A stretch of DNA of 64,000 nucleotides from Pseudomonadales bacterium (GCA_965116055.1 OZ220466.1:689907-753906); one strand, 5' to 3'; counted from the first letter of the stretch, positions 7,901 through 58,987 are shown. The notes: generated by a model not told the origin, from the sequence alone. A program made the numbers and translations.

Positions 7901-8205
7901 CGCGCGGCACGGCGGAGATATTAGCCCAGGCAGGAATCGAAGCGGAGCGGGTGAATAAAGTGACCGAAGGCCGGCCAGATGTATCGGATCTGATTCAAAA
8001 TCGAGATGTCAAATTGATCATTAATACCACGGAAGGCCGTCAGTCTATCGTGGATTCCGCGGTCATTCGACGATTGGCTCTAAAAAACAAGATTACATAT
8101 ACCACGACGCTTGCTGGTGGGATGGCGATTTGCTCGGCAATTCGAGATGGTCGCTCGGATCAGGTTCGCCCATTGCAAGAACTACATGAGGCGCTGACGA
8201 CATGA
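4987..8205 (+). CDS. carB: Carbamoyl-phosphate synthase large subunit
   Basis: 1072 aa with duplicated ATP-grasp halves and a C-terminal MGS-like allosteric domain. Colinear with E. coli CarB. Overlaps the carA stop by 8 nt. Confidence 0.97.
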
Positions 8206-8672
8206 AAATACCTATGACCCTAAATGGTCAATCGCAATTACGCGAAGAACTAGCACGTTTGGAGTCGTCTCTAAGTGAAATCGCCGCGGCCATTGGCGAT
8301 GCGATTAAACTGGGTGACTTAAGTGAAAATGCGGATTATCACGCAAATAAGGAAAAGCAGGGTCTCGTCTTGGCGAAGATTCGCCGTATTAAGTCGCGAT
8401 TGGCGAGTGCACAAGTCATTGATGTTCGCAAGCTAGCAGTAAGCAATCGAGTAGTTTTTGGTACGACTGTCACGATCCTCAATCTTGATTCTGGTGATCG
8501 GCAGGTATATCAAATTGTTGGTGAAGACGAAGCGGACGTTTCCTCCCAAAAACTATCGATCACAACGCCAGTAGCAAGAGCGATGATAACGCAAGAACAA
8601 GGTGATACGATTGAAGTAGCTGGGCAAGATCGAATTGTTAGATATAAAATCGAAAAGGTTCAATATATATAA
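8202..8672 (+). CDS. greA: Transcript cleavage factor GreA
   Basis: 156 aa. [27 protein letters not shown] and the C-terminal [10 protein letters not shown]...G match GreA. ATGA overlap with the carB stop. Confidence 0.93.
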
Positions 8673-8965
8673 CTGTCGTATGATATTTTTAATTATGTTT
8701 TATTTTGTTCGATATAAAAGATAAAACATGGATTCTATTCAAGCGGATCATGTTGTTGCATAGGAATGGATGCCCTATGAACATAGAAGTTTTCATACAT
8801 TATGAAACTAAATCGATAGATTGTTGTCATATAGATACTGCGTCACTAGCCCATACAAAGACAAATCAACAAAAAGTATGAAAAAATGACCATTCTCTTA
8901 TCTCTTGGTAGCGATGGTTATGCTATGATTATGAGCGATTTACGGCAATTCCCGCGGTGTGAGCC

Positions 8966-10903
8966 ATGAGCAGCATGACTAAAAACTTGCTTTTGTGGGT
9001 AGTCATTGGACTCGTTGCGCTGACTCTATTCACAAACTTCACGGGTTCATCGGATTCGCCGGAAATTAGCTATACCGCCTTCGTCGCGGAAGTAGAGGCT
9101 AACCGGGTGAAATCGGTCGTGGAAGAAAACAAGGTCTTGCATGGTACCCGGAAGGACGGCACGACTTTTAAGGTTGTAAAGACGGGCATTCCAGATTCCA
9201 AGATTCTTGACGATCTTCTCAACCGAGGCGTGGAGTTCCGCAGCATTGAGGATAGCGGTAATTCGTTTTGGATGAGCTTGTTGTTAGCTATGCTCCCAGT
9301 CCTGTTTATCGTTGGTCTTTTTGCGCTCATGTTGCGAAATATGCAGGGACTAGGAGGGCGCGGCGGACCATTGCAATTCGCTAAGAGTCGTGCGCGCAGA
9401 CTCACGGAGGAAGAAGTTGACACCACGTTTGCGGATGTCGCTGGCGTGGACGAAGCGAAAGAGGAAGTGCAGGAACTCGTGGAGTTTCTGCGCGATAAAG
9501 AGAAGTTTCAGAAATTAGGCGCCCGGATACCCCGTGGCACGCTTATGGTTGGTGCGCCTGGCACAGGTAAGACGTTGCTGGCGAAGGCTATTGCTGGTGA
9601 AGCGAAGGTTGCTTTTTTCAGCATTTCAGGATCCGATTTCGTCGAAATGTTTGTAGGTGTTGGGGCGTCCCGTGTCCGAGATATGTTTTCGGAAGCGAAA
9701 AACAATGCTCCCTGCATTGTCTTTATTGACGAAATTGATGCGGTTGGGCGCCATCGTGGTGCTGGTTTGGGTAATGGCCACGACGAACGCGAACAAACAC
9801 TTAACCAATTGCTCGTAGAGATGGACGGCTTTCAACCCAATGATGGGGTCATTGTGATCGCCGCCACCAACCGGCCTGATGTGCTGGATCCTGCATTGAT
9901 GCGTCCAGGCCGGTTCGACCGGCAAGTGGTCGTACCTTTGCCTGATATTCGCGGTCGCGAGCAGATCCTCAAAGTTCACATGCGCCGTGCGAAGATCGCA
10001 AATGATGTTCGGCCGGATCTCATCGCGCGCGGTACGCCAGGTTTTTCGGGCGCTGATCTGGAAAACGTGGTCAACGAAGCGGCGCTCTTCGCAGCCCGTA
10101 AGGGTCGTTCTGATGTGACCATGGAAGAGTTCGAGAAGGCTAAGGACAAAATCATGATGGGTGCGGAACGCCGCTCCATGGTGATGTCCGAGAAAGAGAA
10201 GCGAAATACCGCATATCACGAGGCCGGCCACGCGATCGTCGGTTACTCGCTTCCCGATCACGATACGCTTTACAAGATTACCGTTGTACCCCGCGGCCGT
10301 GCGCTTGGTGTGACCACGTTTTTACCCGAGGAAGATCGATACAGTTTGAGTCGATCAGCAGTGGAAGCGCAGATTTGCTCGCTCTTCGGCGGACGTATTG
10401 CGGAAGAGCTGATTAACGGCCCCGATGCTGTCACAACGGGCGCATCGAACGACATTGAACGCGCCACCCAATTAGCGCGAAATATGGTGACGAAGTGGGG
10501 TTTCTCGGATCGGATGGGACCTTTGCAGTACGCGGAAAATGAAAGTGAAGTCTTTCTAGGTATGTCTGCAGGGACGCCGACGAACTCTATGTCGAATGAC
10601 ACAGCTCGTGAAATTGACGAAGAAATTCGGCAGATTGTGGATCGTAACTACGCTCGTGCCAAGTCGATCGTTGAGACCAACATGGACAGACTCCATGCGA
10701 TGGCGAAATGGTTAATTGAATACGAGACGTTGAGCCCAGAGCAGGTCGAAGACATCATGGCAGGGAAAGACCCGCGCCCGCCCGAGGCGCCTCCTATGCC
10801 TGAATCGGGTCCATCACAAGACTTGGCACCCGATTCCGACCCTAATTTGCAAGGTGGTTCGCCGGATGCGCCGCCATTCGGCCCGCCGGCGACAGATTCC
10901 TAG
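8966..10903 (+). CDS. ftsH: ATP-dependent zinc metalloprotease FtsH
   Basis: N-terminal TM helices, Walker [14 protein letters not shown], Walker [14 protein letters not shown] region and the zinc motif HEAGHA. Confidence 0.97.
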
Positions 10904-13084: not shown

Positions 13085-13543
13085 ATGGGTACCGTCGAAA
13101 CTGTCTTACTCATCTTACTTGTTGTGGACGCGCTTGCACTCATAGGATTGGTATTGATTCAACAGAGTAAAGGTGCTGACGTAGGCGCAGCATTTGGCAG
13201 CGGGAGCGCTGGAACCATGTTTGGCCCGTCTGGCGGGGCCTCTTTTTTAGTGAAGGTTACGACTGTTCTTGCGATTTTGTTTTTTGTCATCACGTTTGCC
13301 TTGGCTTACACTGCGAAGCAACGGGCTGACCGCTTGAGCGGATTTCAGTTAAGAGAGCCGCCGGCTGAAGTCGAATCGACTCAGGATATCCCAGACGTTG
13401 GCGCGGAATCGGTCGTTGACGATACCACGGTATTGGAAGGCGATGAGATTCCTATACTTGCCGAACCTAGCGACAGTGTTGAGGCTGCTGCGGAGGAAGA
13501 CCCTGAACCTGGTACCACACAGGAAGACGAAGTGCAACAATAG
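13085..13543 (+). CDS. secG: Preprotein translocase subunit SecG with an acidic C-terminal extension
   Basis: The first ~75 aa align to E. coli SecG (LIQQSKGADVGAAFGSGSAGTMFG, second TM helix). Synteny tpiA-secG-tRNALeu. The last ~70 aa are a D/E-rich tail. Confidence 0.85.
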   Translation: MGTVETVLLILLVVDALALIGLVLIQQSKGADVGAAFGSGSAGTMFGPSGGASFLVKVTTVLAILFFVITFALAYTAKQRADRLSGFQLREPPAEVESTQDIPDVGAESVVDDTTVLEGDEIPILAEPSDSVEAAAEEDPEPGTTQEDEVQQ

Positions 13544-13553
13544 CATGTTTACC

Positions 13554-13639
13554 GCCGAAGTGGTGGAACTGGTAGACACGCTGTCTTGAGGGGGCAGTGG
13601 GCTATGCCCGTGGAGGTTCAAATCCTCTCTTCGGCACCA
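13554..13639 (+). tRNA. leuU: tRNA-Leu (anticodon GAG), leuU-like
   Basis: The 86-nt sequence GCCGAAGTGGTGGAACTGGTAGACACGCTGTCTTGAGGGGGCAG...GGTTCAAATCCTCTCTTCGGCACCA is near-identical in architecture to E. coli leuU. It has a long variable arm, anticodon loop TTGAGGG and an encoded CCA. Confidence 0.92.
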
Positions 13640-13791: not shown

Positions 13792-14172
13792 TTGACCGTC
13801 AAGCTGATTCGCGCGACCAACAAACCGGGGTTTTACGGTGATGGCAACGCGCTTTTCTTGCGGGTCTTGCCGGGTGGCTCCAAACAATGGGTCCAGCGAC
13901 TCACCGTCCGGGGCAGGCGGCGAAACATTGGCCTCGGCGGCGTTCGTTGGGTGACGCTCGCCGAAGAGCGCGAGTCCGCCCATGAGAACCTACGCGTCAC
14001 CCGTCGCGGCGACCTGCCGGAAGCCAGACGCAAGCCGAAGATGTCGTTGTTCCGCGACGCGGCCCAGGGCAATTACGATTCCCTCTGTCCGAGATGGCGC
14101 ACCGAAAAGGTCGCCGCGAGCGGGATGCAGCAGCTCGAACGCTTGGGCGATCTGCCTGTGGGCCGCGGATGA
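13792..14172 (+). pseudogene. P4-type tyrosine integrase, N-terminal (arm-binding/DUF4102-like) fragment only
   Basis: KPGFYGDGNALFLRVLPGGSKQWVQRLTVRGRRRNIGLGGVRWVTLAEERE...RRGDLP matches the N-terminal consensus of P4-like integrases (KPG.Y.DG.GLyL.V...GsK.W..Ry...Gk...lgLG.yp.vsLaeAR). The ORF stops after 126 codons, so the core-binding and catalytic R-H-R-Y domains are missing. Confidence 0.72.
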
Positions 14173-16214
14173 TCGTACCGATTTTTCCACCCTTGGATGG
14201 GGAAACCGCTGAGCGATTCCATGCGTTGGCTACGAAACTCGCCTGCGCCCAGCGTACGCGCAACGCGAAGGAAATGAGTAGCGCATTGGAAGAAGAGACA
14301 GCTTGGTGCCGGTCGGCGAGGTGTAGCGAAAAGTATGTATTGGCCTATGAAGCGTGTGTCCGGGTTCTTACCGATCTCGCGCGGCTCGGTTGGCGCATCG
14401 TCGAACAAGGCTACGGGTTTGCCTTGGAGAAAGGCAAGGAACGGACGGGCCAGACGGCAGAAGAGATCGTGGCCAGCAAGGAGGCGCTGCGCCGTGAGTT
14501 GCAGCCCGTTGTCGATGAACAAAGGCGGCAACTCGCCGTAGTCGACTTCATCGCTCGGATGGAGGGAGAAGACAGCTACGGACGACGTAGCGTGCGGCTG
14601 CTCATGGCGGATGGAGCTGAGCTGGCGGCGAGGCTGGCGCCGGCGTGCACGCTGGAGGGTGAAGATCGGGTGGCATCGCTGAGCGATGCCATCAAGCCCT
14701 ATCTTCAGAAGGCGGACAAGAGTGTGGATCCGACGACAGGTCGTCGGCTTCGCGAGATCTGGCGTTATTTCCGGTATAGCTGGTCAATCCCCCAAGTGCC
14801 CACGCCGGGTCGGCAGTTGCTTTATCTCGTGAGGGATGCCGCGCACCCGGCACACCCGGTCATCGGCATCGCCGCACTCAACAATTGCCCACTCGAAATG
14901 GGCGAGCCGCGCGAGCGGTACATCGGCTGGCACTTCTCGGTGATCGTCGAACGCTTCACCGATGCCTTAGGGAGGGGCAAGGCGGCGCTAGAGGAGGAAG
15001 TCCGATGGCTCGAACGTCAGATCGAGACCTCACTCGCGGAAATCGACTGGACCAACCTCGTCACGGCGGCGGAAGTCGCCACTCCTGACGATGCAGTGAT
15101 CCGCCGGCTTGCGCGACGCGGGCAGGAATTCTCGAAGTTGCGGGAGACTTTGCTGAGGGCGGCTGCTGGGTCCTTTCAGGATCGGCTTGAGGCCGATCTC
15201 GCGGACGATGAAACGGCGCCCCCGGTGGATGACGACATCCTACAGCTGGAGGCGAAGGCATCGGTTGATTCACGCATGTACATGGCCCGCAAGCAACTCG
15301 TGGCGCGGAAGCGAGCCTCCGCATTGTTGCGTCTGCTGTCGGCCCGGCTCGTCATCGCCGAGCACCGGGACGAACTCACCGATCCCGAACGCGCGTCTGC
15401 AGCACTTGGCAAGGACAAGGTAAGAGGCGCGGTGAATATCGTGCTAGAGGCGCTGAAAGGGCGACGGGCAGGAGCCAATCTCCTTGAAATCACGACTTGC
15501 GGCGCGATCGCGCCCTACAATCGAATTCTCGGCGGCAAGCTCGTCGCCCTGCTGATGCTGAGCCCGCAGATCGGTGTTGACTATCGACGCCGTTATTCGG
15601 GCCCGTCAATCATCTCGTCACAAATGAAGAACCAGCCGGTGATCCGCGATAATGCGCTCGTCTATCTCGGCACGACCAGCCTCTACGTCTACGGATCTAG
15701 CCAATACAACCGGCTGCGTCTGCCGGCCGGGACGATCGCGCCGGACCAAGAGTGCATCCGTTACGATGAGATCGGTCAGACCTCCGGTTTCGGGACGATA
15801 CAGTTTTCGCCCGAAACGAGCCGTGCGATTAATGTCTTTCTAGCCCGTGAACACGGTTTCAAAGAGGTCAACAGCGTTTTCGGGGAAGGAACGAGTCCGA
15901 AGCTCCGCAAGGTGCAGATGGGGCTGCGCAGGCTGGGATTCGATCCAGGCAAGTTGATCCAGCATCGCCAACACCGCCTGATTTATGGCGCATCGCTGTT
16001 TCCGGCGGCGCGGGAGTGGTTGCAAGAACGCGTTGACGATCTGCCAGGCTATGTCGCAGCGCCGGATGGTTGCGGGGACGCCACCGAACGCATTGCCGCT
16101 TTTTGGAGGCGGCGCTGGCTCTCAAGCCGTCTTTGTCACCGGCCCAGCATGGTTGCTTTAGCGCGCGACGGTTTCGTACCCTTAGGAGAGACGGTGGGAA
16201 ATTCGGGCGGATGA
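14169..16214 (+). CDS. Island gene A: ~681-aa DUF4338/DruA-like protein with a long charged insert (function unknown)
   Basis: Two motif blocks are visible. The first is WRYFRYSWSIP..GRQLLYLVRDAAHPAHPVIGIAALNNCPLEMGEPRERYIGW. The second, ~230 aa later, is NLLEITTCGAIAPYNRILGGKLVALLMLSP...LVYLGTTSLYVYGSSQYNRL. From memory this pattern resembles the DUF4338 family (DruA of type I Druantia). The ORF is open from 14094. I prefer ATG 14169 because it forms an ATGA overlap with the integrase-stub stop. The stop overlaps the gene B start (ATGA). Confidence 0.55.
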   Translation: MIVPIFPPLDGETAERFHALATKLACAQRTRNAKEMSSALEEETAWCRSARCSEKYVLAYEACVRVLTDLARLGWRIVEQGYGFALEKGKERTGQTAEEIVASKEALRRELQPVVDEQRRQLAVVDFIARMEGEDSYGRRSVRLLMADGAELAARLAPACTLEGEDRVASLSDAIKPYLQKADKSVDPTTGRRLREIWRYFRYSWSIPQVPTPGRQLLYLVRDAAHPAHPVIGIAALNNCPLEMGEPRERYIGWHFSVIVERFTDALGRGKAALEEEVRWLERQIETSLAEIDWTNLVTAAEVATPDDAVIRRLARRGQEFSKLRETLLRAAAGSFQDRLEADLADDETAPPVDDDILQLEAKASVDSRMYMARKQLVARKRASALLRLLSARLVIAEHRDELTDPERASAALGKDKVRGAVNIVLEALKGRRAGANLLEITTCGAIAPYNRILGGKLVALLMLSPQIGVDYRRRYSGPSIISSQMKNQPVIRDNALVYLGTTSLYVYGSSQYNRLRLPAGTIAPDQECIRYDEIGQTSGFGTIQFSPETSRAINVFLAREHGFKEVNSVFGEGTSPKLRKVQMGLRRLGFDPGKLIQHRQHRLIYGASLFPAAREWLQERVDDLPGYVAAPDGCGDATERIAAFWRRRWLSSRLCHRPSMVALARDGFVPLGETVGNSGG

Positions 16215-17821
16215 GTGAGGGAGGACGCCGCGCGGAACCTACGATGGCCACAAACGACGGCGCCAGACTGTGGCGCATGCTTGCCGTGGCGGGCAGGGAA
16301 GCGATCGCCGAAGCGTTGACGGAGGAGGATTTCGAGCGGCTGCATGTTGTCGGTAGTATTGAGCGGTTCCTTGTCGACCAGGTGCAGATGGGCAGGAGTA
16401 TTGTAGTCACCGGAAATGCCGGGGACGGCAAGACGCACTTGCTGCGGCGCGTGAAGCCTAATCTCGAGAGCGCCGGCGCCGTTGTGGTCGAAGACGCGAC
16501 TGCCGAGATGATGGGTGATGATCCGCGTCCGGTTCTTGAGAAGTGGCGCAAGGCTGTGGAAGCCGGGCAGCCGTTTTGCCTGGCGGCGAATGAGTACCCG
16601 CTCTACCAGTTGAGATTGGCGGACGAATCTGCCCCGCATCTGGCGGAAGTTGACCGGCAATGCCGGCACCGCCTGGATTATGGAGAGGGCGAGCGGTCCG
16701 AGTGCAAGGGCGACACCGTGGTGATTGATCTCAGCCTCCGTAACCCGCTGAGTGCCGAGTTCTTCGGGGCTATGCTGGACAGGCTGCTGAACGACGAAGG
16801 GCTGAAGGCAGCACTGGCGAGCCCGAAAGAGTTGGCCGCCCGCCAAAATGTCGAGCTTCTTTCTCATCCACGGGTGCGGGCGCGGTTGCAGGTGCTGGCC
16901 GACCGGCTGGTGGCGTTGGGCCATCGTGCCACGGTGCGCGAGCTGTGGATCCTGTTGGCGCGAATGGTGTTCGGTCGGGGCGAGCGCGACACGTATCAAT
17001 GCGCAGACTGGTATTCGGAGGCGTTGTTCGCTCGGGACGACCGTTTCGAGCTGATGGATGCCCTGCGGGCGATGGATCCCGCCGATTGCAGCCACCCAAC
17101 ATGGGATGCTGCGCTGGATGCCCGCGAGTCCGCAGTGCGCGACGGGTGGGCGCTGCGCGCGCCAGTGCTGCCGCCGCATCCGACGCTTAAGTGGGAAGAT
17201 TTCGCTGCGCTCAAGCGCCGGTTCTATTTCGAGCACGACAAAGGCGAGGAGGCGTTCGAGTTGGACGACGCGGATGAGATTGAGTTCAGGCGGCACTTGG
17301 ACGGAAACGGTGCCTCAGGCCCGACGCTGGTTGCAAGATTGGTCGAATCCATCAACGCAGCCTACTGCCCTGTCCGCTTTGAGTTGCGCGATCAGCATTT
17401 GTATCTGTGGAACGGTCACCGCTTTCACGAGCAGCCGTCCCGGTCCTTCGTCGCCACCGAACGCGTGGCCACGGAGCAATTCGTCACGAAAGTGCCGCGC
17501 CTGCCGGAGCGGCTAGACGGGTGTTTCAAGTATCGGCCGGACCATATCTTGCTGACCGCACAAAAGCATCCGGGAACGCCGCGGCTGCGAATTGACTTCC
17601 CGCTCTGGCAGACGCTTCGCCGACTGGAGCGCGGCCTGCCGCGAAAGCTGATTCCGGAGCGCGACATTCATCGCCTGGACGCCTTCCTCCAGGAGCTCGG
17701 TGCGGGGCCGGTAGGGACTCGCGACAGCATCTGGTCTGTTCACATAGAAAACTTGGAACTGATCCAAGTGAATCTCAGCGCGGATAGGAGTCGCTTCGAG
17801 CGGGTGCGCCGCTATGGCTAA
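16211..17821 (+). CDS. Island gene B: 536-aa P-loop NTPase (family unassigned)
   Basis: Walker A IVVTGNAGDGKTHLLRRV, followed by an acidic hydrophobic strand AVVVEDATAE. The remaining ~430 aa have no motif I recognise. The ORF is open from 16070, but ATG 16211 gives an ATGA overlap with the gene A stop. Confidence 0.7.
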   Translation: MSEGGRRAEPTMATNDGARLWRMLAVAGREAIAEALTEEDFERLHVVGSIERFLVDQVQMGRSIVVTGNAGDGKTHLLRRVKPNLESAGAVVVEDATAEMMGDDPRPVLEKWRKAVEAGQPFCLAANEYPLYQLRLADESAPHLAEVDRQCRHRLDYGEGERSECKGDTVVIDLSLRNPLSAEFFGAMLDRLLNDEGLKAALASPKELAARQNVELLSHPRVRARLQVLADRLVALGHRATVRELWILLARMVFGRGERDTYQCADWYSEALFARDDRFELMDALRAMDPADCSHPTWDAALDARESAVRDGWALRAPVLPPHPTLKWEDFAALKRRFYFEHDKGEEAFELDDADEIEFRRHLDGNGASGPTLVARLVESINAAYCPVRFELRDQHLYLWNGHRFHEQPSRSFVATERVATEQFVTKVPRLPERLDGCFKYRPDHILLTAQKHPGTPRLRIDFPLWQTLRRLERGLPRKLIPERDIHRLDAFLQELGAGPVGTRDSIWSVHIENLELIQVNLSADRSRFERVRRYG

Positions 17822-19160
17822 CGCAACGCGAACGAAAGCGGACACGGCCGCCGTGCGCCGTGTACATGGTGCTATCCTCGGGTACCACCCTTACCGTATG
17901 AAGCCGGTTCACTTTGCCACGAGTTTCCTTCTGGCGTTGACTGGCCGATACCGCCGGCTCGAATACCTGAACAAAGCGTCGGTGCCGAAGACAGTACCTA
18001 GGGGCAGGCCGAACATCCAGAACGAGTACCTGGACGTTCGGCTTCATTCCCGGCTGGTCGATCTTGAGAAACTGGACCCGTCGGTTGACCTGGAGTCGTT
18101 CCGCATGCTTCGTGCGCACCTGAACGCAGCATACAACAACGACGGTTCAGCTCTCGCAGCCAGCTTTTCGCCCTATTCGACGTTCGGGGTGGACTACAGT
18201 GCCCCCTCGGCCCGATACATCTCGAACCGATCGAAGAACCATGGTTATTCGGGGAGCTTCGTCGTTTCGGTCTTGGAAGCCACCGCCGAGGGACGGGAAG
18301 CACTCGGAAGCATCAGGCGGCTGCTAGAGCTTCCGCCGCCGCCGCTGGATGCGTTCGGCGAGCCTCTGCTTGACGACGTGGACGAGGAATGGTGCGATCA
18401 GCACGACGAGTTCTACGGCACGATCGAGCCTGGAAGGCTGGCGCGGGTCGGGTCGGAAATGAAGGACTGCACGGTTGCGATAGGCTGCCTCGCCGCGAAT
18501 CTCGAGCGACTGCGATCCAGCTATTCGCTGCGCTACATGGTGCTAGGTCTCTGTTGTTGGCTGTTTGCCTACATGATGCGCCGGGGAAGCGATTCGCCGC
18601 CGCTGCTAATTGACGCGGTGCAGGGACGTAATCCCAGGATCCGCGCACAGAGCAGGGCCACCTATGCGCGGGCGCTGGACCTCTTTTCCTCCAGCTACGA
18701 CCGGGCTTTCTCGCTGGCCGGTAGCTCGGGGATCAAGGAAGACGACTGGGATGTGTTCGCCCGCTCGGAGAAAACCCGCCAAGAACTGGATGATCACTTT
18801 CGGGACTTGGGTGTGCGGATCGGCATCGTGCAGCCCCGCTCAACGGTCGCCAAGCACAAACATGTTGAACTGCAAGCGGACACGCTTCGGGTGCTCTCGT
18901 ACAGCCTGCTTAAAGAGGGCCAAGTGCTGACTCTGCCGACATTCGCAGACCAACTCAGAAGAGTCTGGTCAATTCTGGTCGGTGCCCACGCTTCGGACGG
19001 CGACGTTCTGCGCGCAAACCGCTTCGGTCCCCTTGATCACGATGAGGATCTGCGATCGAACGCGGCTGCGTTCCGATCGCTGTTGGTGAGGCTAGGCTTG
19101 GCGGTAGAGCCGTCCGACGGGCTGACACTGGTCGCGATCAACGCGGAAGAGGCGATCTGA
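17814..19160 (+). CDS. Island gene C: 448-aa hypothetical protein, no recognisable motif
   Basis: Long high-GC ORF with GC3-rich codons. It overlaps gene B by 8 nt (ATGGCTAA) and ends 1 nt before gene D. No P-loop, nuclease or TM motifs were seen. Confidence 0.65.
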   Translation: MANATRTKADTAAVRRVHGAILGYHPYRMKPVHFATSFLLALTGRYRRLEYLNKASVPKTVPRGRPNIQNEYLDVRLHSRLVDLEKLDPSVDLESFRMLRAHLNAAYNNDGSALAASFSPYSTFGVDYSAPSARYISNRSKNHGYSGSFVVSVLEATAEGREALGSIRRLLELPPPPLDAFGEPLLDDVDEEWCDQHDEFYGTIEPGRLARVGSEMKDCTVAIGCLAANLERLRSSYSLRYMVLGLCCWLFAYMMRRGSDSPPLLIDAVQGRNPRIRAQSRATYARALDLFSSSYDRAFSLAGSSGIKEDDWDVFARSEKTRQELDDHFRDLGVRIGIVQPRSTVAKHKHVELQADTLRVLSYSLLKEGQVLTLPTFADQLRRVWSILVGAHASDGDVLRANRFGPLDHDEDLRSNAAAFRSLLVRLGLAVEPSDGLTLVAINAEEAI

Positions 19161-19161
19161 G

Positions 19162-22100
19162 ATGGCGCGCACGGCAGCATCGCTGGTGAGCGAGGCACTG
19201 GCGTCTTGGATTCTCTCGCGGCTGGGCCATGAGAACGATTTCGCGCGCGAGGGACTTCCAGAGTTCGACATTCCGTGCCTGATGCAGGCACTTTCGGAGG
19301 GAGGCCTGCCTGCCGGAAGATTCTCGCTGGCGCTGGTCGGATTCGAGACGACAGAAGAGGAGGTGCGGGCGCTCGCGGACGCGAATGGTCTCAGCGCGCT
19401 TGCCGGGGTGACACTTGATCTCCATGTCGCCACCGAGTGGCGCAATGATCGCAACCGGCATCCGAGGATCGTCGCACTGGCGCTCGGCTACAATCCGGGC
19501 GTGCACGGCTTGCGCTTCTTCTCCCGCGCCTCTTCGGGAGAACTCGCAGCCATTCTGCTGGGCTGGGCGGAGAACGCATCCGAGTTCACGACCACCCCAC
19601 AGCACCAAGAGTTGCTGAAGACGCTGCGTCTGGCGCGGGGGCTGGGGTCGGTTCGTTCCCTGGAAGGCGTTGCGGCCTTTCTCGCCGAATGGAGCAAGGG
19701 AGGTGACGGGGCGATTGGCAGGCCGCGCGATGTTCTTCCCGCTCTCGGACTGCTCCGCGATCCGCGATTGTTTGAGGCAGACGACCTGGCCAAGCGTCTC
19801 GAACACAATCTGCGTGTAGGGGAGAGCGTCACCATCATGTCACCAGGAGACATCCGGCAGCGGCGCAAGCGCGCGACGCACTACCGCGATGCGGAGACGG
19901 CTGAGCTGGTGACCCAAGCGCTGGACCGACTGGAAGCCCATCGGCGCGGCGATCCCGACGCAGGGCTGACGTTGGAGGATGCGGATCGCCTCATGAGCCT
20001 TCCCGTTGACCCACCACCGGCCTCCTGCTCGGAGACGGACGAGCCAGACATTTCCGACGAACACGACGACGCCGAGGAAAAGGACGAGCCCAGACTGCAC
20101 GAGATGGCGGTGGATGCACTACTGGAAGGTCGCGATGAAGATCTCGCGGCCATCGGTGAGCTCCTTGAAGCCGCGTGGGAAGAGTTTCGGCGGAACGGGG
20201 ATCTACTGGTGTCCAGTCAGGAAACCAGCCAGGGAGTGGCTCGGCTCGAAGAGCACGTCGACCCCAAAGTCATTGACTGGGTTGCCGCCTTCTGCTGCGA
20301 GGATCGCTATGGCGGGCTCATTGAGACCGACATTGATGACCTGTCGCAGGCGCTTGCCCGCTATACCGAGTTCGACCCCCTATTCCTGGACCCAGGCGCG
20401 ATCTGGAAGCATGACGGGGTCTCCTACTCCATTGAGGAGCTGCTCAAAGGGTGGGATAAAGTGGATGCTGTCGCCGAAGCCCGCCCACGCCTGATCGCAG
20501 CGATGTGGCGCGATTTCGTCGCCGCGCGCACCTCGCTTGCGAAGGGAGGGATGACGAGTCCGCTTCTCATCCATCCTCGCGAGTGGCTTGATACCCATCC
20601 CGAAACACGAGATTTCTGCGCGCGCTACCTTGCGGTGGCGACCGAACTCTACAAGGCGATCCAGCAGAATTATCGGGCAGTCTGGGACCAGTCGCCCGAG
20701 TGGGCGCAGGCGACGCTGGACGCGATTCTGTCGCTTGACCTAGTACAAGTTCGGATTGCGGGTCTTGACGGCGGATTCAGCGCCAAGGCGGTGATGTTGC
20801 CGCTGCATCCGCTGCATCTGTGGCGATACCAGCGTTTCGGAGAAATTCTCCGCGATCTCTCGCGTACGGGACCGATGTCCGAAGGCGACAAAAAGGTCGT
20901 CATTGAGGAGTTGCGCCGTCCGGAACACTTTGTCAGCGTCATAAGAACCGGGGCCACGCCGGAAGGACGGGGGCTCAACCAGTTGCTTCCCGTCGCTAAC
21001 CAGATTCGCGGCCTCGCGACGTTCGAGAACCTGCACAATGCGATCAGCAGCGCCGATGGTATGGAGACGCTGGTTCTCGCGCTTAATCGCTTCGTGATGC
21101 TTTACCCCAACCATCCGCGGCCGCTCCGGTTGACGCTGGTCAATCCACCCGAACCAGCTCGGCTACTGGAACGACTGACGAAATTCCTGAATGAGCGGCA
21201 GAACATCGGCGGACGTCTTCCCGCCCTCAAAGTGACAGTCGTCGCCACGGCCGGGCACCGGGATCGGCTGACGGCGATGTCGGTACTCGAAAGCAAGGCG
21301 CAGGACCTGGTTTACGAGCAAGTCTCCGCCGGCCGACTTGATCTGCGCGTGGAACGCGATTCCTTTGAGAATCTCGACCGGCTGGTAACGGAGGTGCTGT
21401 CGAAGCGTCCGCAGCACTTGGTGGCGATCTTCGACGAGTCCGCGGTCTCGGTCAAGCGCAGGCGGGTCGAGCGCCTACTGCCCATGAGTCCGTTCTGCGT
21501 GCGCAACGAGATCGTGATTGATCGGATGCTGGGCGATATCAGCCTGAGTCCACATCCGGGTGAACCGCCGTTCTCGGATTTCGTGATGATGATCCACGAG
21601 TTCGAGCAGGAGCAGCGGGACAGCACGATGGTCGCCTCGGCGGATGCTGACCGGCTACGCTCGACGATTGATGACCTGCTGATCGGAGAGCGAGCGCCGG
21701 CGCGCTGGGTCCTGCTCGCGGATCGCGCTCTGCCGCCGGAAAGCGGCATGACGTCCATCCGCCTCTTGCAGCGTAGGGAGGGACATCGCCAGGTGCTGCT
21801 GAGCGCAGCTGACTATGGACGGTTGTCGACATTAATGCGTGCCGCGTTCAGTAACTGTAATCTAACGATCACGAATGAGGGGTTGGGTCACGTTCTGCGG
21901 CAGGGCGTGAACTTGGTCGGTGCCGGTTTGCTTGACATGATCAAGAAGCAGTCCGGATTGCCAGACAAATCGTTGGTGCTCGGGTTCGTGGGCATGCTGC
22001 TCGCCGCTCGACATGTGCGAAGCGAGGATCCGCATGCACTGGTCGCCTCGGTTGACGGGTCGGTCGCACGCCTCTGGCTTAAGCTGAGCCCTGTGGGTGA

Positions 22101-23937
22101 CCGCAGGCGCTGCGATCTGATTGCGCTTCGTCGAGGGGCGAACGAGTCATTTCGTATCACCTGTATTGAAGTCAAGACAACTGGGGAATCAATCCTTTCT
22201 GACGAGACAGCATTGATTGGTTATGCGGCTGACCAGATCGAGCGTACGGCGGCGGTACTGTCGAGCGCGGTTGGCGAGTCGGGGCCGTTCGCGGCACCGC
22301 GCTTGGAAATGTTGAAAGAGGTCTTGGTGAGGGCGGCATCAAGCCGCTGGGGCGAGGAGCAGGACGATGTCGCTCAGCGCAAGATCTGGGGTCCGCTGCT
22401 CAAGGACCTGCTCGGGGACGGTCCCGAACCGTCGGTCGTGCGGGTGGACGGCGAGATCGTCATCGTGAAACTGCGCTCAACGGAGCCGGCCCGGGTGAGG
22501 CCACTCAGGGGGAGAGAGATCCCGCTTTCAGTCAGGACAATAAACGAGAAGGAGGCGGAGTTCCTGTTCGACAATGATTTCGTAACCGAGGCTCCGCCGG
22601 AAGGCGCGGATTCGGACGGCGATGCTTCAGATGCAGAACAGAGGGGCGGGCATAATTCGCCCAGTGAAGAGGCGCCGCTACCGGCTGAACGTGCTTCTAA
22701 ACCGGAATCGGGATTGCGTGATGGTTACGGGACCAGGGATACGGCGACTGAAACAGGCGGGGATGAGCCATCGTTGATCGCTGCCGATGCGGCGGCCGGG
22801 AGAAAACGTCGGGACGGGACGGAGGTGCCGACGACCTCGGCGGTCGTCGACCGCGCGAACGAAGCAGTTGTCGAAGGGGAGGGGGTGAGCGCGGGTTCGG
22901 TCTGGCCGCCGCGCGTGAACGCGCTGGGGATGGTCGGACAATACGAAATCGCCCAAGAACTGGACAATCAAGCGCGCAAGGCAAGGGGCTGGGGCGAGAG
23001 GTTCCTGGACAAGTTGTTCGTCGGGCCCGCCGGCGTTGGCAAAACGACGCTCGCCCGTCGGATCGCTGAACGACTGCTTCAGCTAGAACCGATCGTGTTC
23101 AACGGCGCAGATCTTCGCCGGCCGGACATGATCGTGGAGCGACTGATGGAGGCCGGCAAGGCACCGGGCACCGGCGGACGCAGCGTTGAGGTCACAGTCG
23201 CCCCCTGCCTAATCTTCATAGACGAGGTGCATGCGGTTGCAAGCCAGGTTTCGACAGTTCTACTCAGCGCGTTAGACGAGCGGCGTAGCACCACGATCGG
23301 AAATGTGGTTTACAGTTTTGAGGATGTCGTGTTCCTGCTGGCGACCACGGATCCGGGTAGGCTCTCGGAGGCGTTCCAGAGCCGGCCGGACAAGACGATC
23401 CTGCGGTCTTACACGCTCGAGGAGGTGGCCGGGATTGTCTGGCTCCACTCCGTGGAGACGCTTGAGCAAACGGGCCTCAGCCGCGAGACCTGTATTGAGA
23501 TTGCGGCGCGCATGCAGTGCAGCCCGCGGCCGAGTGTCAACATCCTCAAGCCACTGGTGGCGAGTTTCTACGGCACAGCAGAGTACGGGCTGGGACGCGT
23601 GCCGACCAAGGAAGAAGTCGCGGACCTGATGAACACGGGTGCCGTGGCGAGGTGGTTCGAAGATACACAGGGCATTGACCGAAACGGCCTTACCTCGGTG
23701 CATGTGGAATATCTCAAGCTGCTACAGATCCGCGGTACCTCGGCGGAGGAAGAGATTCGCCGGGCGCTCGGAATCTCGAACCGGGCCGACTTCGTGATCG
23801 TATCGGAGTATCTGACCCGTCTCGACCTGATCCGCGTCGGACCTGGCGGTCGAGGTCTGACCTCCGATGGCAGGCGTTATCTCAACGCGTCGTCTCCGCC
23901 TGACTTCCGCGACAGGATCTCACGTCGCATTGCCTGA
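19162..23937 (+). CDS. Island gene D: 1591-aa multidomain protein (large unknown N-region, PD-(D/E)xK-like motif, acidic disordered linker, complete RuvB-like AAA+ ATPase with C-terminal winged helix)
   Basis: The nuclease-like motif is CDLIALRRGANESFRITCIEVKTT (D985...E1003-x-K1005, nt 22114-22176). The RuvB-like part begins at PPRVNALGMVGQYEIAQEL. It has Walker A FVGPAGVGKTTLARRIAE (nt 23023-23046), Walker B CLIFIDEVHAV (D1354 E1355) and sensor-1 FLLATTDPGRLSEAFQSRPD. The C-terminal block GIDRNGLTSVHVEYLKLL...ALGISNRADFVIVSEYLTRLDLIRVGPGGRGLTSDGRRYL mirrors the RuvB C-domain consensus (GLD..D..yL..l...G....iA.alg......e.v.EPyLi..g.i.RTpRGR..T). Confidence 0.8.
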   Translation: MARTAASLVSEALASWILSRLGHENDFAREGLPEFDIPCLMQALSEGGLPAGRFSLALVGFETTEEEVRALADANGLSALAGVTLDLHVATEWRNDRNRHPRIVALALGYNPGVHGLRFFSRASSGELAAILLGWAENASEFTTTPQHQELLKTLRLARGLGSVRSLEGVAAFLAEWSKGGDGAIGRPRDVLPALGLLRDPRLFEADDLAKRLEHNLRVGESVTIMSPGDIRQRRKRATHYRDAETAELVTQALDRLEAHRRGDPDAGLTLEDADRLMSLPVDPPPASCSETDEPDISDEHDDAEEKDEPRLHEMAVDALLEGRDEDLAAIGELLEAAWEEFRRNGDLLVSSQETSQGVARLEEHVDPKVIDWVAAFCCEDRYGGLIETDIDDLSQALARYTEFDPLFLDPGAIWKHDGVSYSIEELLKGWDKVDAVAEARPRLIAAMWRDFVAARTSLAKGGMTSPLLIHPREWLDTHPETRDFCARYLAVATELYKAIQQNYRAVWDQSPEWAQATLDAILSLDLVQVRIAGLDGGFSAKAVMLPLHPLHLWRYQRFGEILRDLSRTGPMSEGDKKVVIEELRRPEHFVSVIRTGATPEGRGLNQLLPVANQIRGLATFENLHNAISSADGMETLVLALNRFVMLYPNHPRPLRLTLVNPPEPARLLERLTKFLNERQNIGGRLPALKVTVVATAGHRDRLTAMSVLESKAQDLVYEQVSAGRLDLRVERDSFENLDRLVTEVLSKRPQHLVAIFDESAVSVKRRRVERLLPMSPFCVRNEIVIDRMLGDISLSPHPGEPPFSDFVMMIHEFEQEQRDSTMVASADADRLRSTIDDLLIGERAPARWVLLADRALPPESGMTSIRLLQRREGHRQVLLSAADYGRLSTLMRAAFSNCNLTITNEGLGHVLRQGVNLVGAGLLDMIKKQSGLPDKSLVLGFVGMLLAARHVRSEDPHALVASVDGSVARLWLKLSPVGDRRRCDLIALRRGANESFRITCIEVKTTGESILSDETALIGYAADQIERTAAVLSSAVGESGPFAAPRLEMLKEVLVRAASSRWGEEQDDVAQRKIWGPLLKDLLGDGPEPSVVRVDGEIVIVKLRSTEPARVRPLRGREIPLSVRTINEKEAEFLFDNDFVTEAPPEGADSDGDASDAEQRGGHNSPSEEAPLPAERASKPESGLRDGYGTRDTATETGGDEPSLIAADAAAGRKRRDGTEVPTTSAVVDRANEAVVEGEGVSAGSVWPPRVNALGMVGQYEIAQELDNQARKARGWGERFLDKLFVGPAGVGKTTLARRIAERLLQLEPIVFNGADLRRPDMIVERLMEAGKAPGTGGRSVEVTVAPCLIFIDEVHAVASQVSTVLLSALDERRSTTIGNVVYSFEDVVFLLATTDPGRLSEAFQSRPDKTILRSYTLEEVAGIVWLHSVETLEQTGLSRETCIEIAARMQCSPRPSVNILKPLVASFYGTAEYGLGRVPTKEEVADLMNTGAVARWFEDTQGIDRNGLTSVHVEYLKLLQIRGTSAEEEIRRALGISNRADFVIVSEYLTRLDLIRVGPGGRGLTSDGRRYLNASSPPDFRDRISRRIA

Positions 23938-24114: not shown

Positions 24115-25010
24115 TCACCAAACCCCGTAATCGGGAACCCGAGAAGGCTCTTGTGTTGTTATATGTGTATCTTGTCCGACATGCTCGACAATAAAGTTCG
24201 TTTCGATGGTGTTGTCGGCAATAAGCTGATCTTCAAGGTCGTTCGACGGCGGAAGCGTTTCGAAATGTCTGGCTAGGTCTTCCTCACTAAACCCGCGCTT
24301 CAGGATGCCCTTTTGAACTTCTCGGCCTCTTGATCGACATCCACGATCATGTGCCAGGGATTTCAAAGGTCTCCACCAATGCCGGATAGATCCCGGCATT
24401 ACCGCTCTGCTTGAAGTCGACAACGGCGACGCCGTGTGTATCAAGAGGCCAGCCTAGATCTTTGCCGAGCGCATGTACAAAGAGGTATTCGGTAACGCCT
24501 TCGACAAGAAGCTAGCGGCGGGCGAAGAAGATTTCTCCGCGGACACGCCGTCCATGAAAACCGAGTTCTTCTTCATCCTCGGTCGTCGGGAGAATGCGGC
24601 CTTGGTGACGAAGGCGGCGGATCGCTTCGGCGCGTTCATGACGGTCGGGATCGCGCTGATAGCACTCGAAAGGCGATCAGACATGGTCATGTCGAACCAG
24701 ATCGTACCGCCACGCTCTTGGTCGGAATGCCTTGCAAGAAGATTTGGTCGCCTGATGCCGCGATGAACGCATCATGACTGTCGTTCCAAGGCAGCTCGGA
24801 AACGATATACGGCGGTAGTAAGGAAAATTCGGCACAGCCACCCGCAACCGAACCAGCCTGATGTCGCGCAACGGCACATTCTGGACAAAATACGGGGAGT
24901 AGGTCGTCATGACTTTCTGACCGGATAACTCCTGCACACGCTCCCACAATTTGTGCGCCGCTTGCGGGTGGAGATGAACCGCCGGTTCCTTTATAGCGAA
25001 AAAAAGAAAG
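24115..25010 (-). pseudogene. OLD-family (ABC-type ATPase + Toprim) nuclease remnant, 5'-truncated and frameshifted
   Basis: Four frame segments read on the minus strand. (1) FAIKEPAVHLHPQAAHKLWERVQELSGQKVMTTYSPYFV is the Walker-B/D-loop/H-loop region of OLD/AAA_15-type ATPases (consensus IEEPE.HLHP....TTHSP). (2) LLVEGVTEYLFVHALGKDLGWPLDTHGVAVVDFKQSGN carries the Toprim Glu. (3) IPWHMIVDVDQEAEKF carries the Toprim DxD. (4) The C-terminal tail. In-frame stops and frameshifts separate the segments. The Walker A half is absent. Confidence 0.72.
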
Positions 25011-41574: not shown

Positions 41575-43170
41575 TCAGCCGAACTGACGCTCTTCTTGTT
41601 CCTCAAGATCCTTGCAGTTTATGCATAGATCGGCTGTCGGTCGGGCTTCTAGACGTGCAATTCCGATGGGATAGCTGCAACTTTTGCAGTAACCGTAATC
41701 GCCATTCTCGATTTTTTCCAGTGTTTCCTTGATTTTGCTGATGAGCTTACGCTCGCGATCTCGGATTCGTAATTCAGTACGGCGGTTATCTTCCTCTGTC
41801 GCCTGATCTAGTTCGTCAGGTAAATTCTTAGGTTCGGAGACTAGCTTACCGTGTGCATCGCCCGCACTCTCGTCCAATCCGTTGAGCTGATCCAACAGAA
41901 TCTGCCTAAACCGCGAAAGTTGTTTCGCGTTCATGTAATCGTCTGAGGTGTCAATTTCAATAGGTAGAGCGCGAGATTCGAGTTTTGACATACGATCAAA
42001 TTCGGTTTCACCGGCCTTTCGAGCCTGCCGGGCAGAACTGGCGGAGGCACGTCGGGGGCGTCGTGCCACTATGCTGAGAGGGCCAGATTCGAGCGCGGCC
42101 GATGAATTTTTCGTTGTTTTGGGCTTATTAGCGGCAGTTGCCCTGGACGTTTTTTTGGTTGTTTTCTTTGGGCTTTTTGCCTGAGCGCTCTTAGCTTTCG
42201 CAACCGTTTTACTCAGACGAGCCTGAACAGTTTGCTTCGATTTTGTATTCTGTTTGGCGGCCGTGCGACTTTGTGGCGACTTCGTAGGCGTTCGTTTAGT
42301 AGCTGGTTTTTTTGCCGTGCCGCTTGTTCGTGTCGCTCGTTTTGGCGCTGTCTTTTTCGTTACTTCAGACTTTACAGCCGTTGTTTTTTTAGAAGCCGCT
42401 GCGGTTCGCTTGATTGTTTTCTTTGTGTTAGTCGGTGAGGCTTTTTTAGTCGACGAGGGTCGCCGCGAGGTGGCGGCAGGTTTGGCCGCCGTGGTAGTTT
42501 TTTTAGTTGCGCGAGCGCTTGATTTCACTGTGCGTTTCGTAGTCGATCTAACCGCTTTTTTGGTAGGACTTGAGCTCGCCTTGGTTGCCGCGACGGGTTT
42601 TGATTGAGTGCGCGTTGGTGTCTTTTTCACCTTGGCTCTACTACTTGTCGCTTTAGTTTTTTTCGCAGCAGCGTTTGATGTCTTTGCAGTCGCTCGTGAC
42701 GTGGCAGCGACTTTTTTCGTGCGAGATGTTGTGGCCGAAGTTGTACGGGTTCGGTTTGATGTAGCTGCGGTTGCTTTTCTCGTAACTGTCTTCTTAGCCG
42801 TCGTACTCGTCTTGCGAGCTGGAGTCGATCTTGCCTTTTTGGTGGCCTCGGAACTGCTCTTTTTCGCTGATTTTGCGGCAGTTCGTTTCGTTGTGCTAGC
42901 GGAAGGTTTTTTTGCTACCGTCTTTTTTGTTGTTTTGGTCGCGCGCGACGCGGTAGTGCGGTTATCAGCTCGTGTTGTCGCAGTCGTACGTTTCTTTGTT
43001 GCAGTACTGCTACTGCGCGGCGTCGTTTTACGCGCGGCACTTGATGCTTTGACTTTGGTTGTTGGGCTTGCCGTAGCCGTTGATTTCTTTCGGGTGGATT
43101 CGACTTTCTTGTTCGTCTTCACATTCTTCGTTTGGGTGGATTTTTTCGTAGCCATCTCGACGCTCTCCAC
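41575..43170 (-). CDS. dksA: RNA polymerase-binding factor DksA with ~380-aa basic low-complexity N-terminal extension
   Basis: The last ~120-150 aa are canonical DksA. They include YMNAKQLSRFRQIL, the coiled-coil tip DELDQA (DxxDxA), RDRERKLISKI and the C4 zinc finger CKSC...CINC with RLEARPTADLC. The preceding ~380 aa are almost only K/T/A/S/R. Confidence 0.9.
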   Translation of the reverse strand: MESVEMATKKSTQTKNVKTNKKVESTRKKSTATASPTTKVKASSAARKTTPRSSSTATKKRTTATTRADNRTTASRATKTTKKTVAKKPSASTTKRTAAKSAKKSSSEATKKARSTPARKTSTTAKKTVTRKATAATSNRTRTTSATTSRTKKVAATSRATAKTSNAAAKKTKATSSRAKVKKTPTRTQSKPVAATKASSSPTKKAVRSTTKRTVKSSARATKKTTTAAKPAATSRRPSSTKKASPTNTKKTIKRTAAASKKTTAVKSEVTKKTAPKRATRTSGTAKKPATKRTPTKSPQSRTAAKQNTKSKQTVQARLSKTVAKAKSAQAKSPKKTTKKTSRATAANKPKTTKNSSAALESGPLSIVARRPRRASASSARQARKAGETEFDRMSKLESRALPIEIDTSDDYMNAKQLSRFRQILLDQLNGLDESAGDAHGKLVSEPKNLPDELDQATEEDNRRTELRIRDRERKLISKIKETLEKIENGDYGYCKSCSYPIGIARLEARPTADLCINCKDLEEQEERQFG

Positions 43171-54268: not shown

Positions 54269-54345
<77 letters not shown>

Positions 54346-54373
54346 TAAGGCGCGCTGCGCCGAAGAAATAGAT

Positions 54374-54449
54374 GGGGCCGTAGCTCAGCTGGGAGAGCGG
54401 TTGCTTTGCACGCAACAGGTCAGGAGTTCGATCCTCCTCGGCTCCACCA
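54374..54449 (+). tRNA. tRNA-Ala (UGC) in rrn spacer
   Basis: GGGGCCGTAGCTCAGCTGGGAGAGCGGTTGCTTTGCACGCAAC...CTCCACCA. The G3:U70 identity pair is present. Confidence 0.95.
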
Positions 54450-58498: not shown

Positions 58499-58987
58499 CT
58501 CACCTTTCGAAGCTCAATGCATACAGTCTAGTATTATGGTATATCGGGCTACCTACGTACTTATCGAACTAGGGTCATAGTATCCAAAACTGGATTAAAC
58601 GGATGATGCAAGGATACCCTATCCGAAACATCCGGCGATTGAGTGCAGTGAATGATTTGTTGATGCTCAAAGGACATGGCTCTATCTCACAGGGATGCCT
58701 GGAAGTAAATTCGCTAGTATGGTTCATCTATATCGTTGGTGTTACCAATTAATTGGGGCGAGGGGACGAAGGGCGCTAGGAGCCAGCGCCTTAGAAAATT
58801 TCCCGGGATAAAATTAGGAAAATATATCTTCTATAGAGATAGTCAGTAAGATAATCTACATGAAAAATAAATATGATAGTATATCCTATTCACTGGATAC
58901 TAAATCGTTTTGCGACGCAGGCTTATAGCTAACGCTAGACGCGCTACAAAAGCATGCTGTGAGAAATATGTTTCTGTAATGAATGTC

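Follow-up and report, generated by a model that had tools for sequence, protein, structure and literature searches.

What kind of system is encoded by four adjacent genes carried on a high-GC island of a Pseudomonadales bacterium, next to a leucine tRNA gene? We addressed this question for a window of 64,000 nucleotides (nt) (GCA_965116055.1, OZ220466.1:689907-753906; "the window" denotes this whole stretch, and positions are counted from its first letter). The four genes, designated A to D, were compared with curated models of defense genes, with their homologues in other genomes, and with predicted and experimental structures. The cassette probably is a standalone, horizontally acquired machine of the DndFGH/SspFGH class for the restriction of invader DNA, which has been extended by DruA and in which the motor has been swapped. 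The genes, as delimited by open reading frame (ORF) calling, with product lengths in amino acids (aa), are as follows.

14169-16214, plus strand: gene A, 681 aa
16211-17821, plus strand: gene B, 536 aa
17814-19160, plus strand: gene C, 448 aa
19162-23937, plus strand: gene D, 1591 aa

An initial annotation, made from the sequence alone, had described these as four coupled ORFs on the same strand, and ORF calling returned the same coordinates with junction sequences that were exact. The stop codon of an upstream integrase stub overlaps the start of A in the sequence ATGA (14169-14172), A and B share a second ATGA (16211-16214), B and C overlap in ATGGCTAA (17814-17821), and C and D meet at TGAGATG (19158-19164). 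With these starts, the four products are identical to public gene calls, which are unnamed, and each ORF is full length when compared with its homologues.

To determine how widely the arrangement occurs, relatives of D were collected. At least 131 were found at an E value of ≤0.001 in 90% clusters, and nearly all of them were full length. The relatives of D and C are annotated at most as "AAA family ATPase" or "hypothetical protein." A scan with the D alignment, restricted to one genome per species, yielded 57 loci, in which ORFs were called and searched with A to D. These loci came from Alpha- and Gammaproteobacteria, Acidobacteriota, Verrucomicrobiota, Bacillota, Cyanobacteria, Binatia, and Spirochaetia. 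Wherever the contig allowed, the order A-B-C-D was kept; the loci concerned number about 35 and represent at least eight phyla, so the co-occurrence of the four genes that the initial annotation had put forward for checking was strongly confirmed. A chance arrangement is excluded by the full length of the ORFs and by the repeated finding of the same gene order at about 35 independent loci. Additionally, outside the window's crown group (in which D identity is at least 51%), most lineages have A and B joined in one protein of about 1,240 aa. Because the order is kept and A and B are found fused, we regard the four genes as one functional unit.

Analysis of the amino acid sequence of B indicated that it is a P-loop (kinase-like) protein of the DndF/SspF type. 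The Walker A motif GNAGDGKT, on which the initial assignment to the P-loop NTPases was based, is read at aa 68 to 75 (nt 16412-16435), and Asn126 stands where the Asp of Walker B is expected. B matched four PADLOC SspF models (PDLC02795, which was the best at 4.7e-11, 02793, 02796, and 02794) and PADLOC DndF (5.6e-4), and it was below threshold for the generic AAA models of Pfam. A hidden Markov model (HMM) of the B family matched the DptF proteins of Aliivibrio, Massilia, and E. coli (approximately 1e-7), whose three canonical dptFGH loci were taken from plasmids as a reference. In hhalign, the B family aligned with DptF with a probability of 92.8% and an E value of 4e-7, residues 42 to 300 being placed on 33 to 295 (approximately 240 to 260 residues); GNAGDGKT fell over SSGDGKS, AAN(126)E fell over GIN, and the DAT motif was aligned. 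A search of B against PDB sequences returned P-loop noise only. DndF has been described as a P-loop kinase-like core with a canonical Walker A motif, an Asn-for-Asp Walker B motif, and a large helical lid, and the Asn that replaces the Walker B Asp is its hallmark (Rakesh, Aravind and Krishnan 2024, Nucleic Acids Research [NAR], PMC10853773). According to the same study, DndF cores sometimes are fused at the N terminus to a GNAT domain "annotated as DUF4338"; the accessible part of its supplement contains no listing of GNAT-DndF loci.

C was connected to the same class by a transitive route, from the C profile to a second tier of relatives and from these to the PADLOC model of SspG. A profile search with C found 238 relatives among 1.84 billion representatives (50% identity). 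Among these was a second tier of 52 proteins of 470 to 540 aa, with which the C family aligned over its full length in hhalign (probability of 100%; E value of 5e-56). All 10 second-tier proteins tested matched PADLOC SspG, with E values of 1e-4 to 8e-16. Within the C family itself, a direct match to SspG was weak and was confined to the homologue at locus L041 (E value of 0.0047). In the AlphaFold model of C (predicted local distance difference test score [pLDDT] of 82.5), helices predominate and the hairpins are short; DndG consists of three winged-helix domains and has 450 to 500 aa (PMC10853773). No match was found when the C profile was searched against PDB sequences. From the profile alignments and the model, C is predicted to be a DNA-binding subunit of the SspG/DndG family, helical and with winged-helix units.

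The organization of D was deduced from its homologues and from structure prediction, and it comprises the following parts.

19162-22587, plus strand: N-terminal scaffold, D aa 1 to 1142 (AlphaFold model and homology)
21079-21441, plus strand: Rossmann-like stretch, D aa ~640 to 760 (secondary structure, with inferred boundaries)
21967-22566, plus strand: PD-(D/E)xK nuclease domain, D aa ~936 to 1135, with D985, E1003, and K1005
22588-22896, plus strand: acidic, disordered, nonconserved linker, D aa 1143 to 1245 (pLDDT of ~30; no alignment consensus)
22909-23937, plus strand: RuvB-like AAA+ module with a C-terminal winged helix, D aa 1250 to 1591 (Pfam, NCBIfam, and PDB profile)

The scaffold is predicted to begin with an alpha/beta domain, which is followed by a helical region, then by a Rossmann-like domain, and last by the nuclease domain (model pLDDT of 78.6). 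Pfam assigned no family to the N-terminal 1,150 aa of 32 D homologues, and no match to PDB sequences was found with the scaffold profile. The D...ExK motif that had been taken initially as nuclease-like proved to be invariant in all clades: D985, E1003, and K1005 are conserved across 24 to 32 full-length homologues, down to 27 to 33% identity and including the FtsK/HerA clades described below. In the model of D, these residues are surrounded by a helix-strand-strand-strand pattern. The N-terminal scaffold of DndH is reported to consist of an inactive SNF2 C-domain, a helix-turn-helix, two beta-sandwiches, a target recognition domain, an inactive DAM methylase, and a restriction endonuclease (REase) domain (PMC10853773). 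Foldseek searches with the D scaffold returned small Rossmann methyltransferases as top matches, none of them significant; in the model, this signal agrees with the inactive methylase domain of DndH, although it is not proof. Within the Rossmann-like stretch, N661-P662-P663 of an NPPE sequence (aa 661 to 664; nt 21142-21150) is invariant and is located where a predicted beta-strand ends. Judged by its residues, NPPE may be a relic of the amino-methyltransferase motif IV without the aromatic residue. Methyltransferase motif I was not found in D by a motif scan.

The C-terminal motor of D was of the RuvB type and not of the FtsK/HerA type, in agreement with the initial reading of its Walker A motif, GPAGVGKT (aa 1288 to 1295; nt 23023-23046). 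The only Pfam matches in D, at residues ~1250 to 1590, were AAA (1.1e-15), RuvB_N, and RuvB_C, and RuvB ranked first in a PDB profile search with the motor (9e-13). NCBIfam RuvB (PRK00080) matched over model positions 27 to 327 of 330, so that aa 1250 to 1591 align over the whole length of RuvB, its C-terminal winged helix included. The conserved elements are Walker A, Walker B (LIFIDE; aa 1350 to 1355), both sensors (1 and 2), and the arginine finger, and T1395/T1396 (sensor 1), R1408, and R1456 are as invariant in the family as the Walker motifs. Unlike RuvB itself, this module is fused behind a 1,140-aa nuclease scaffold and has no ruvA or ruvC context. A tblastn search of PLSDB with the D motor returned genuine ruvB genes only, at 27 to 28% identity over 94% of the query. 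The possibility that D is a true RuvB was ruled out by the NCBIfam score (58.4 bits versus a cutoff of 282) and by the missing ruvA/ruvC context.

Comparison of the scaffold across clades revealed that the same scaffold is joined to different motors. At eight loci from Acidobacteriota and Spirochaetia, homologues share D residues ~20 to 1170 at 33% identity and end in a HerA/FtsK domain of the DndH type; that of the L041 homologue matched PADLOC DndH at 1.2e-68. At L073, the H protein matched the scaffold HMM at 3e-220 over positions 1 to 1204 and then continued into an SspH-type C terminus (PADLOC SspH, 2e-55). This protein has 1,566 aa compared with the 1,561 positions of the SspH model, and its gene lies behind a DruA-SspF fusion, whose F portion matches SspF at 1e-20, and an SspG-like gene. 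At L071, F, G, and H were found without DruA. The linker of D is the junction at which the motors differ between clades, and homology to the FtsK/HerA forms ends at aa 1130 to 1204. Because the AAA+ proteins make up one clan in a neighbor-joining tree of the D scaffold, with the FtsK/HerA forms outside it, the tree favors one exchange of the motor, made at the linker (aa 1143 to 1245).

DndH is a protein of ~1,700 aa that ends in an REase domain and a HerA/FtsK ATPase that has been "captured" repeatedly, and its motors are derived from mobile elements and segregation systems (PMC10853773). That study describes the "capture" of HerA/FtsK only, and no description of a RuvB-like motor variant was found in the literature on DndH with RuvB, DruA with GNAT, or "DruA-like." Thus, the DruA-DndF fusion already was published in 2024, whereas the RuvB-like motor variant was not found described. 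The cassette extends the published "capture," in that the motor slot can be filled also by a RuvB-type AAA+ module, which belongs to another ATPase superfamily. On this evidence, the complex seems to require a generic ring translocase for double-stranded DNA rather than a specific pump.

These results bear on the proposal, made in the initial annotation, that the locus is a categorically new defense system. Under this proposal, the cassette would be unrelated to Dnd/Ssp and would resemble these systems in its gene sizes only. No curated full-length HMM assigns C or D, neither of which is in PADLOC v2, and neither Pfam nor PDB sequences gave a match to the N terminus of D, as would be expected of a new system. 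Against this stand the alignment of B with DptF, including the Asn-for-Asp Walker B motif, the chain from C to SspG at a probability of 100%, the occurrence of the D scaffold with both SspH-type and DndH-type motors, and the DUF4338-DndF fusion that already has been published (PMC10853773). The links of B, C, and the D scaffold largely refute an unrelated origin, which we consider very unlikely. They also overturn the dismissal of DptFGH/SspFGH with the remark that the combination fits neither this module nor Druantia, since B, C, and the D scaffold are true homologues of the Dnd/Ssp family. The narrower statement, that the cassette is neither Druantia type I nor a canonical DptFGH/SspFGH module, was upheld, as neither the models of DruB to DruD nor NCBIfam DptF, DptG, and DptH gave a match. 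No set of confident full-length HMMs in Pfam, PADLOC, or NCBIfam assigned all four genes to a described system. Because such an assignment is lacking and the proteins are homologous to the Dnd/Ssp family, the cassette is best described as a divergent, unnamed variant of that family.

The likeness to SspFGH, the restriction module of the SspABCD-SspFGH phosphorothioate (PT) system (Wang et al. 2021, PMC8092258), includes a three-gene core of equal order and similar sizes. SspF is a P-loop protein of ~550 aa with a Walker A motif, and SspH has ~1,560 aa and an FtsK/SpoIIIE-like C terminus. B matches four models of SspF, the C family has homologues that match SspG, and the L073 H protein from a sister clade has the same length as SspH and an SspH-type, FtsK-like C terminus; in addition, both designs combine a nuclease with a translocase to damage DNA. 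Unlike SspFGH, the window's D carries the RuvB-like AAA+ module in place of an FtsK-like domain, the cassette has DruA as an extra gene, C and the D scaffold have no direct match to the SspG and SspH models, and no sspBCD genes were found near the cassette with DndC/DGQHR-like proxies and Pfam families as queries.

The likeness to DndFGH/DptFGH lies in the alignment of B with DptF over ~260 residues, in which Walker A and the unusual Walker B with Asn for Asp both are matched, and, weakly, in the structure of C, for which DndG is the best match (E value of 0.12; template modeling [TM] score of 0.35). D likewise consists of an REase domain followed by a C-terminal motor of the hexameric type, and one sister clade of D carries the DndH-type HerA/FtsK. 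GNAT(DUF4338)-DndF fusions and standalone occurrence both have been described for DndFGH (Rakesh, Aravind and Krishnan 2024, NAR, PMC10853773). Unlike DndFGH/DptFGH, however, B, C, and D have no match to NCBIfam DptF, DptG, and DptH, the motor is AAA+ and not HerA/FtsK, and DruA is a separate gene in the window's clade. The D scaffold is ~200 aa shorter, lacks an evident beta-sandwich pair, and has no significant similarity to DptH, and no linkage to the dndABCDE phosphorothioation genes was seen. Canonical DptFGH/SspFGH membership was ruled out on three counts: the curated models fail, the motor is another one, and no PT module was found near the cassette.

The first gene of the cassette points in another direction. 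A matched the PADLOC model DruA1 (PDLC00001) with 420 bits and an E value of 3.4e-126, with residues 42 to 658 aligned to positions 44 to 642 of 675, and it scored 92.8 bits with Pfam DruA. These nearly full-length matches bear out its first description as DruA/DUF4338-like and identify A, by homology, as a full-length DruA-family protein (DUF4338). A search of A against PDB sequences gave no match. DruA is a signature protein of Druantia type I, and we know of no function assigned to it. DUF4338 has been described as GNAT-like (PMC10853773).

The possibility therefore had to be weighed that the cassette is a Druantia type I variant whose B, C, and D replace DruB, DruC, and DruD, and whose DruE, a YprA-family helicase with DUF1998/MZB, has been lost or lies downstream, as it does in some relatives. 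A is a nearly full-length DruA, relatives of A are named "Druantia anti-phage system protein DruA" by the Prokaryotic Genome Annotation Pipeline (PGAP), and a DruE1-type helicase lies directly downstream of D at three loci (L008, L009, and L062). B, C, and D matched no PADLOC model of DruB, DruC, or DruD, however; the homologues of B and C are SspF and SspG, and DruE is missing from the window and from ~30 of ~33 complete loci. A Druantia variant is thus highly improbable. Membership in Druantia type I proper was ruled out, since DruB to DruE are lacking.

The DruE1-type helicases form an observation in their own right. They are proteins of 2,053 to 2,060 aa encoded directly downstream of A-B-C-D in three alphaproteobacterial loci, at L009:14921-21082 (+), L008:8095-14274 (+), and L062:16490-22672 (+). 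They match PADLOC DruE1 at an E value of 0 and contain the Pfam domains DEAD/YjiV_N/Helicase_C/MZB, and they are followed by a 573-aa NERD/SLFN-like helicase. The presence of DruA and DruE on one island without DruBCD could reflect a hybrid system or mere neighborhood.

When SspFGH and DndFGH are expressed in the absence of their modification partner, they are toxic and damage the DNA of the host (PMC8092258). Modification genes were searched for in the 64-kb window and, in other genomes, in the 10 kb that flank the cassette to either side. No homologues of DndB, DndC, DndD, DndE, or Dcm were detected by phmmer in the window or within 10 kb in ~60 loci, and no PT-related Pfam families were found among 117 neighboring ORFs; both scans agree with the initial statement that modification genes are not present. 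No DndC-like or DGQHR-like gene adjoined the cassettes, the one exception being a weak DGQHR match at L006. DndFGH usually is uncoupled from dndABCDE, and all eight dnd genes occur together in 7% of the taxa with any dnd gene (316 of 5,228; PMC10853773).

A restriction module that relies on a modification system elsewhere in the genome, whether phosphorothioation or another mark, would account for the requirement of SspFGH/DndFGH for PT-modified self DNA and for their toxicity otherwise (PMC8092258), and the DNA covered here would leave room for such a partner at a distance. The searches of the window, of the ~60 loci, and of the 117 neighboring ORFs gave no sign of one, and the published figure of 7% also counts against it. 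We regard a distant modification partner as possible but doubtful. In the reading that we prefer, the cassette probably restricts invader DNA on its own.

The setting of the cassette was consistent with horizontal acquisition. The features of the island outside the cassette are as follows.

13554-13639, plus strand: tRNA-Leu(GAG), found by ARAGORN, the presumed integration site of the island
13792-14172, plus strand: stub of a P4-type integrase, 126 aa, with the Arm-DNA-binding N terminus alone (Pfam Arm-DNA-bind_3, 4e-11)
24677-24949, minus strand: fragment of an ATPase gene (DUF2813/OLD-like N terminus) in the decayed tail of the island (Pfam and tblastn)

Between 14 and 24 kb, the GC content is 0.60 to 0.645 and that of third codon positions (GC3) is 0.69 to 0.76, compared with a GC content of ~0.50 in the flanks (secG, rimP, and nusA). 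The high-GC DNA begins ~150 nt downstream of tRNA-Leu(GAG), and the integrase stub is cassette-like in composition (GC content of 0.643; GC3 of 0.76), the genes of the cassette and the stub having 61 to 64% GC. A search for the 12.5-kb region in E. coli genome sequence gave no match; thus, the host is not E. coli. The GC profile, the tRNA gene, and the Pfam match of the integrase together support the description of a single four-gene cassette on a tRNA-linked, high-GC island. A flanking dead OLD-family nuclease gene, which also had been proposed, is plausible, but its evidence is thin and consists of weak DUF2813/AAA-ATPase likeness over 35 to 52 aa: Pfam DUF2813 matched the fragment at an E value of 0.0045, below the cutoff, and tblastn matched it to "AAA family ATPase" genes at 4e-8. 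No matches were found in the remainder of 24.0 to 25.0 kb, and only short ORFs are present from 24.0 to 25.1 kb. No att direct repeats were detected, the only hits being chance matches and the likeness of two tRNA 3' ends. A scan for promoters and terminators gave nothing that exceeded shuffled expectation.

In other genomes, the flanks of the cassette vary and include housekeeping genes, a transposase, excisionase-like genes, restriction-modification genes, mad2, and DruE; the cassette thus behaves like a self-contained mobile unit. An alternative is that it is a DNA-handling module that serves a mobile element, in segregation, transfer, exclusion of competitors, or addiction, and not host immunity. 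Such a role would fit the involvement of FtsK/HerA and RuvB motors in the transport and recombination of DNA, the origin of DndH motors in mobile elements and segregation systems (PMC10853773), the integrase-linked island found here, and the transposases and excisionase-like genes that adjoin the cassette at some loci. Many cassettes, however, lie between housekeeping genes with no mobility genes, defense genes recur as neighbors, and the invariant nuclease triad and the kinship to Dnd/Ssp point to restriction. A service to mobile elements is unlikely on this evidence.

Several results weigh against assigning the cassette to the DndFGH/SspFGH class as a functional restriction machine. B did not match the NCBIfam model of DptF, and C had no direct match in Pfam, PADLOC, or NCBIfam, the models of SspG, DndG, and DptG included. 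The single best Foldseek match of the C model in the PDB was DndG (7exx), at a probability of 0.91, but this match was weak, with the E value and TM score given above, and hhalign of the C-family HMM against canonical DptG was not significant. Neither D nor its scaffold matched the PADLOC models of DndH and SspH or NCBIfam DptH, and the predicted secondary structure of D has no evident beta-sandwich pair, unlike that of DndH. Homology of the scaffold to canonical DptH is unproven, because hhalign against 22 canonical DptH proteins returned nothing beyond a generic match to the P-loop and collinear patches that were weak (E values of 0.006 and 0.11). SspFGH/DndFGH are toxic alone, and no modification genes by which self DNA might be spared lie near the cassette. 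Finally, activity of the cassette in its present host is not assured, because the surrounding island has decayed.

On the assignment that we favor, the following mechanism is the most likely, by analogy with DndFGH and SspFGH. A, B, and C would assemble with D in one complex. B would serve as the P-loop kinase-like, nucleotide-binding subunit, sensing a nucleotide or an infection signal, and C would be a multi-winged-helix DNA binder; D would contribute further DNA-binding surfaces, the PD-(D/E)xK nuclease, and a ring-forming translocase of double-stranded DNA. DNA would be recognized through C and the D scaffold, and the complex would load on foreign DNA. The RuvB-like AAA+ ring would then move along the duplex, driven by ATP, and the nuclease would nick or cut the DNA so that replication of the phage or plasmid is blocked. 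A, as a GNAT-like DruA, may act as an accessory sensor or back-up effector in the same complex. Complex formation, translocation, cleavage, and the defense role are what we infer from the kinship of the proteins, whereas the homology of A, B, C, and the D scaffold, the gene order, the A-B fusion, the motor exchange, and the conservation of the catalytic residues are properties of the sequences compared.

The distribution of the cassette extends beyond Bacteria. On a haloarchaeal plasmid (Halobaculum litoreum, NZ_CP126157.1, 227317-237412; L074:5809-15904), we observed DruA, named as such by PGAP and split in two, together with F-like genes, a G-like gene, a 1,002-aa H-like protein, and a separate "DNA translocase FtsK." Related DruA-F-G-H cassettes thus occur on haloarchaeal plasmids, and therefore the cassette type spans Bacteria and Archaea.

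Tentatively, DruA-F-G-H could constitute a distinct, modification-independent immune family across both domains, in one large clade of which the FtsK/HerA motor gave way to a RuvB-type branch-migration motor; this broader proposal is rather doubtful at present. If it is true, the system would have been retargeted from incoming or segregating linear duplexes to branched intermediates of phage replication and recombination, and DruA would be a shared sensor or effector that joins the Druantia and Dnd/Ssp worlds. DruA is a regular partner of F-G-H modules in many phyla and often is fused to F, and the F-G-H cassette offers a second, simpler genetic context in which to study it. PADLOC v2 cannot detect this branch; therefore, defense inventories miss the cassette or miscall it as a Druantia fragment.

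Additional gene sets were noted at the cassette loci. In Caulobacter, Sphingomonas, and Sphingopyxis, the region upstream of the cassette contains a conserved set of three divergently oriented genes (~267, 377, and 770 aa), at L003:511-4747 (-), L014:52-4366 (-), and L016:525-4797 (-); its 770-aa protein contains HATPase_c_3 and matches PADLOC mad2 at 3.6e-18. Another F/G/H-like trio, with products of ~680 to 705, 503 to 506, and 1,623 to 1,820 aa, was found on plasmids of Sinorhizobium (L066:2725-13579) and Pseudoalteromonas (L069:1087-11495). The H proteins of this trio end in a DndH-type HerA/FtsK (1e-66 to 1e-69), and neither the F-like nor the G-like proteins are recognized by PADLOC. The trio adjoins a DNA cytosine methyltransferase gene and, in L066, also Vsr.

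Elsewhere in the window, SecG (13085-13543, plus strand) has 152 aa with an acidic, low-complexity C-terminal tail; SecG typically is shorter than this copy. A 531-aa ORF at 41575-43170 (minus strand) falls in the sole 1-kb bin of extreme AT skew (-0.55 on the plus strand), and no tandem repeat was detected in it. Two stretches, 58000-62000 and 8001-9000, have a GC content of 0.39 to 0.43 compared with a background of ~0.51, the first of them downstream of an rRNA operon marked by tRNA-Ile/tRNA-Ala (54269-54449). These low-GC stretches could be further foreign DNA.

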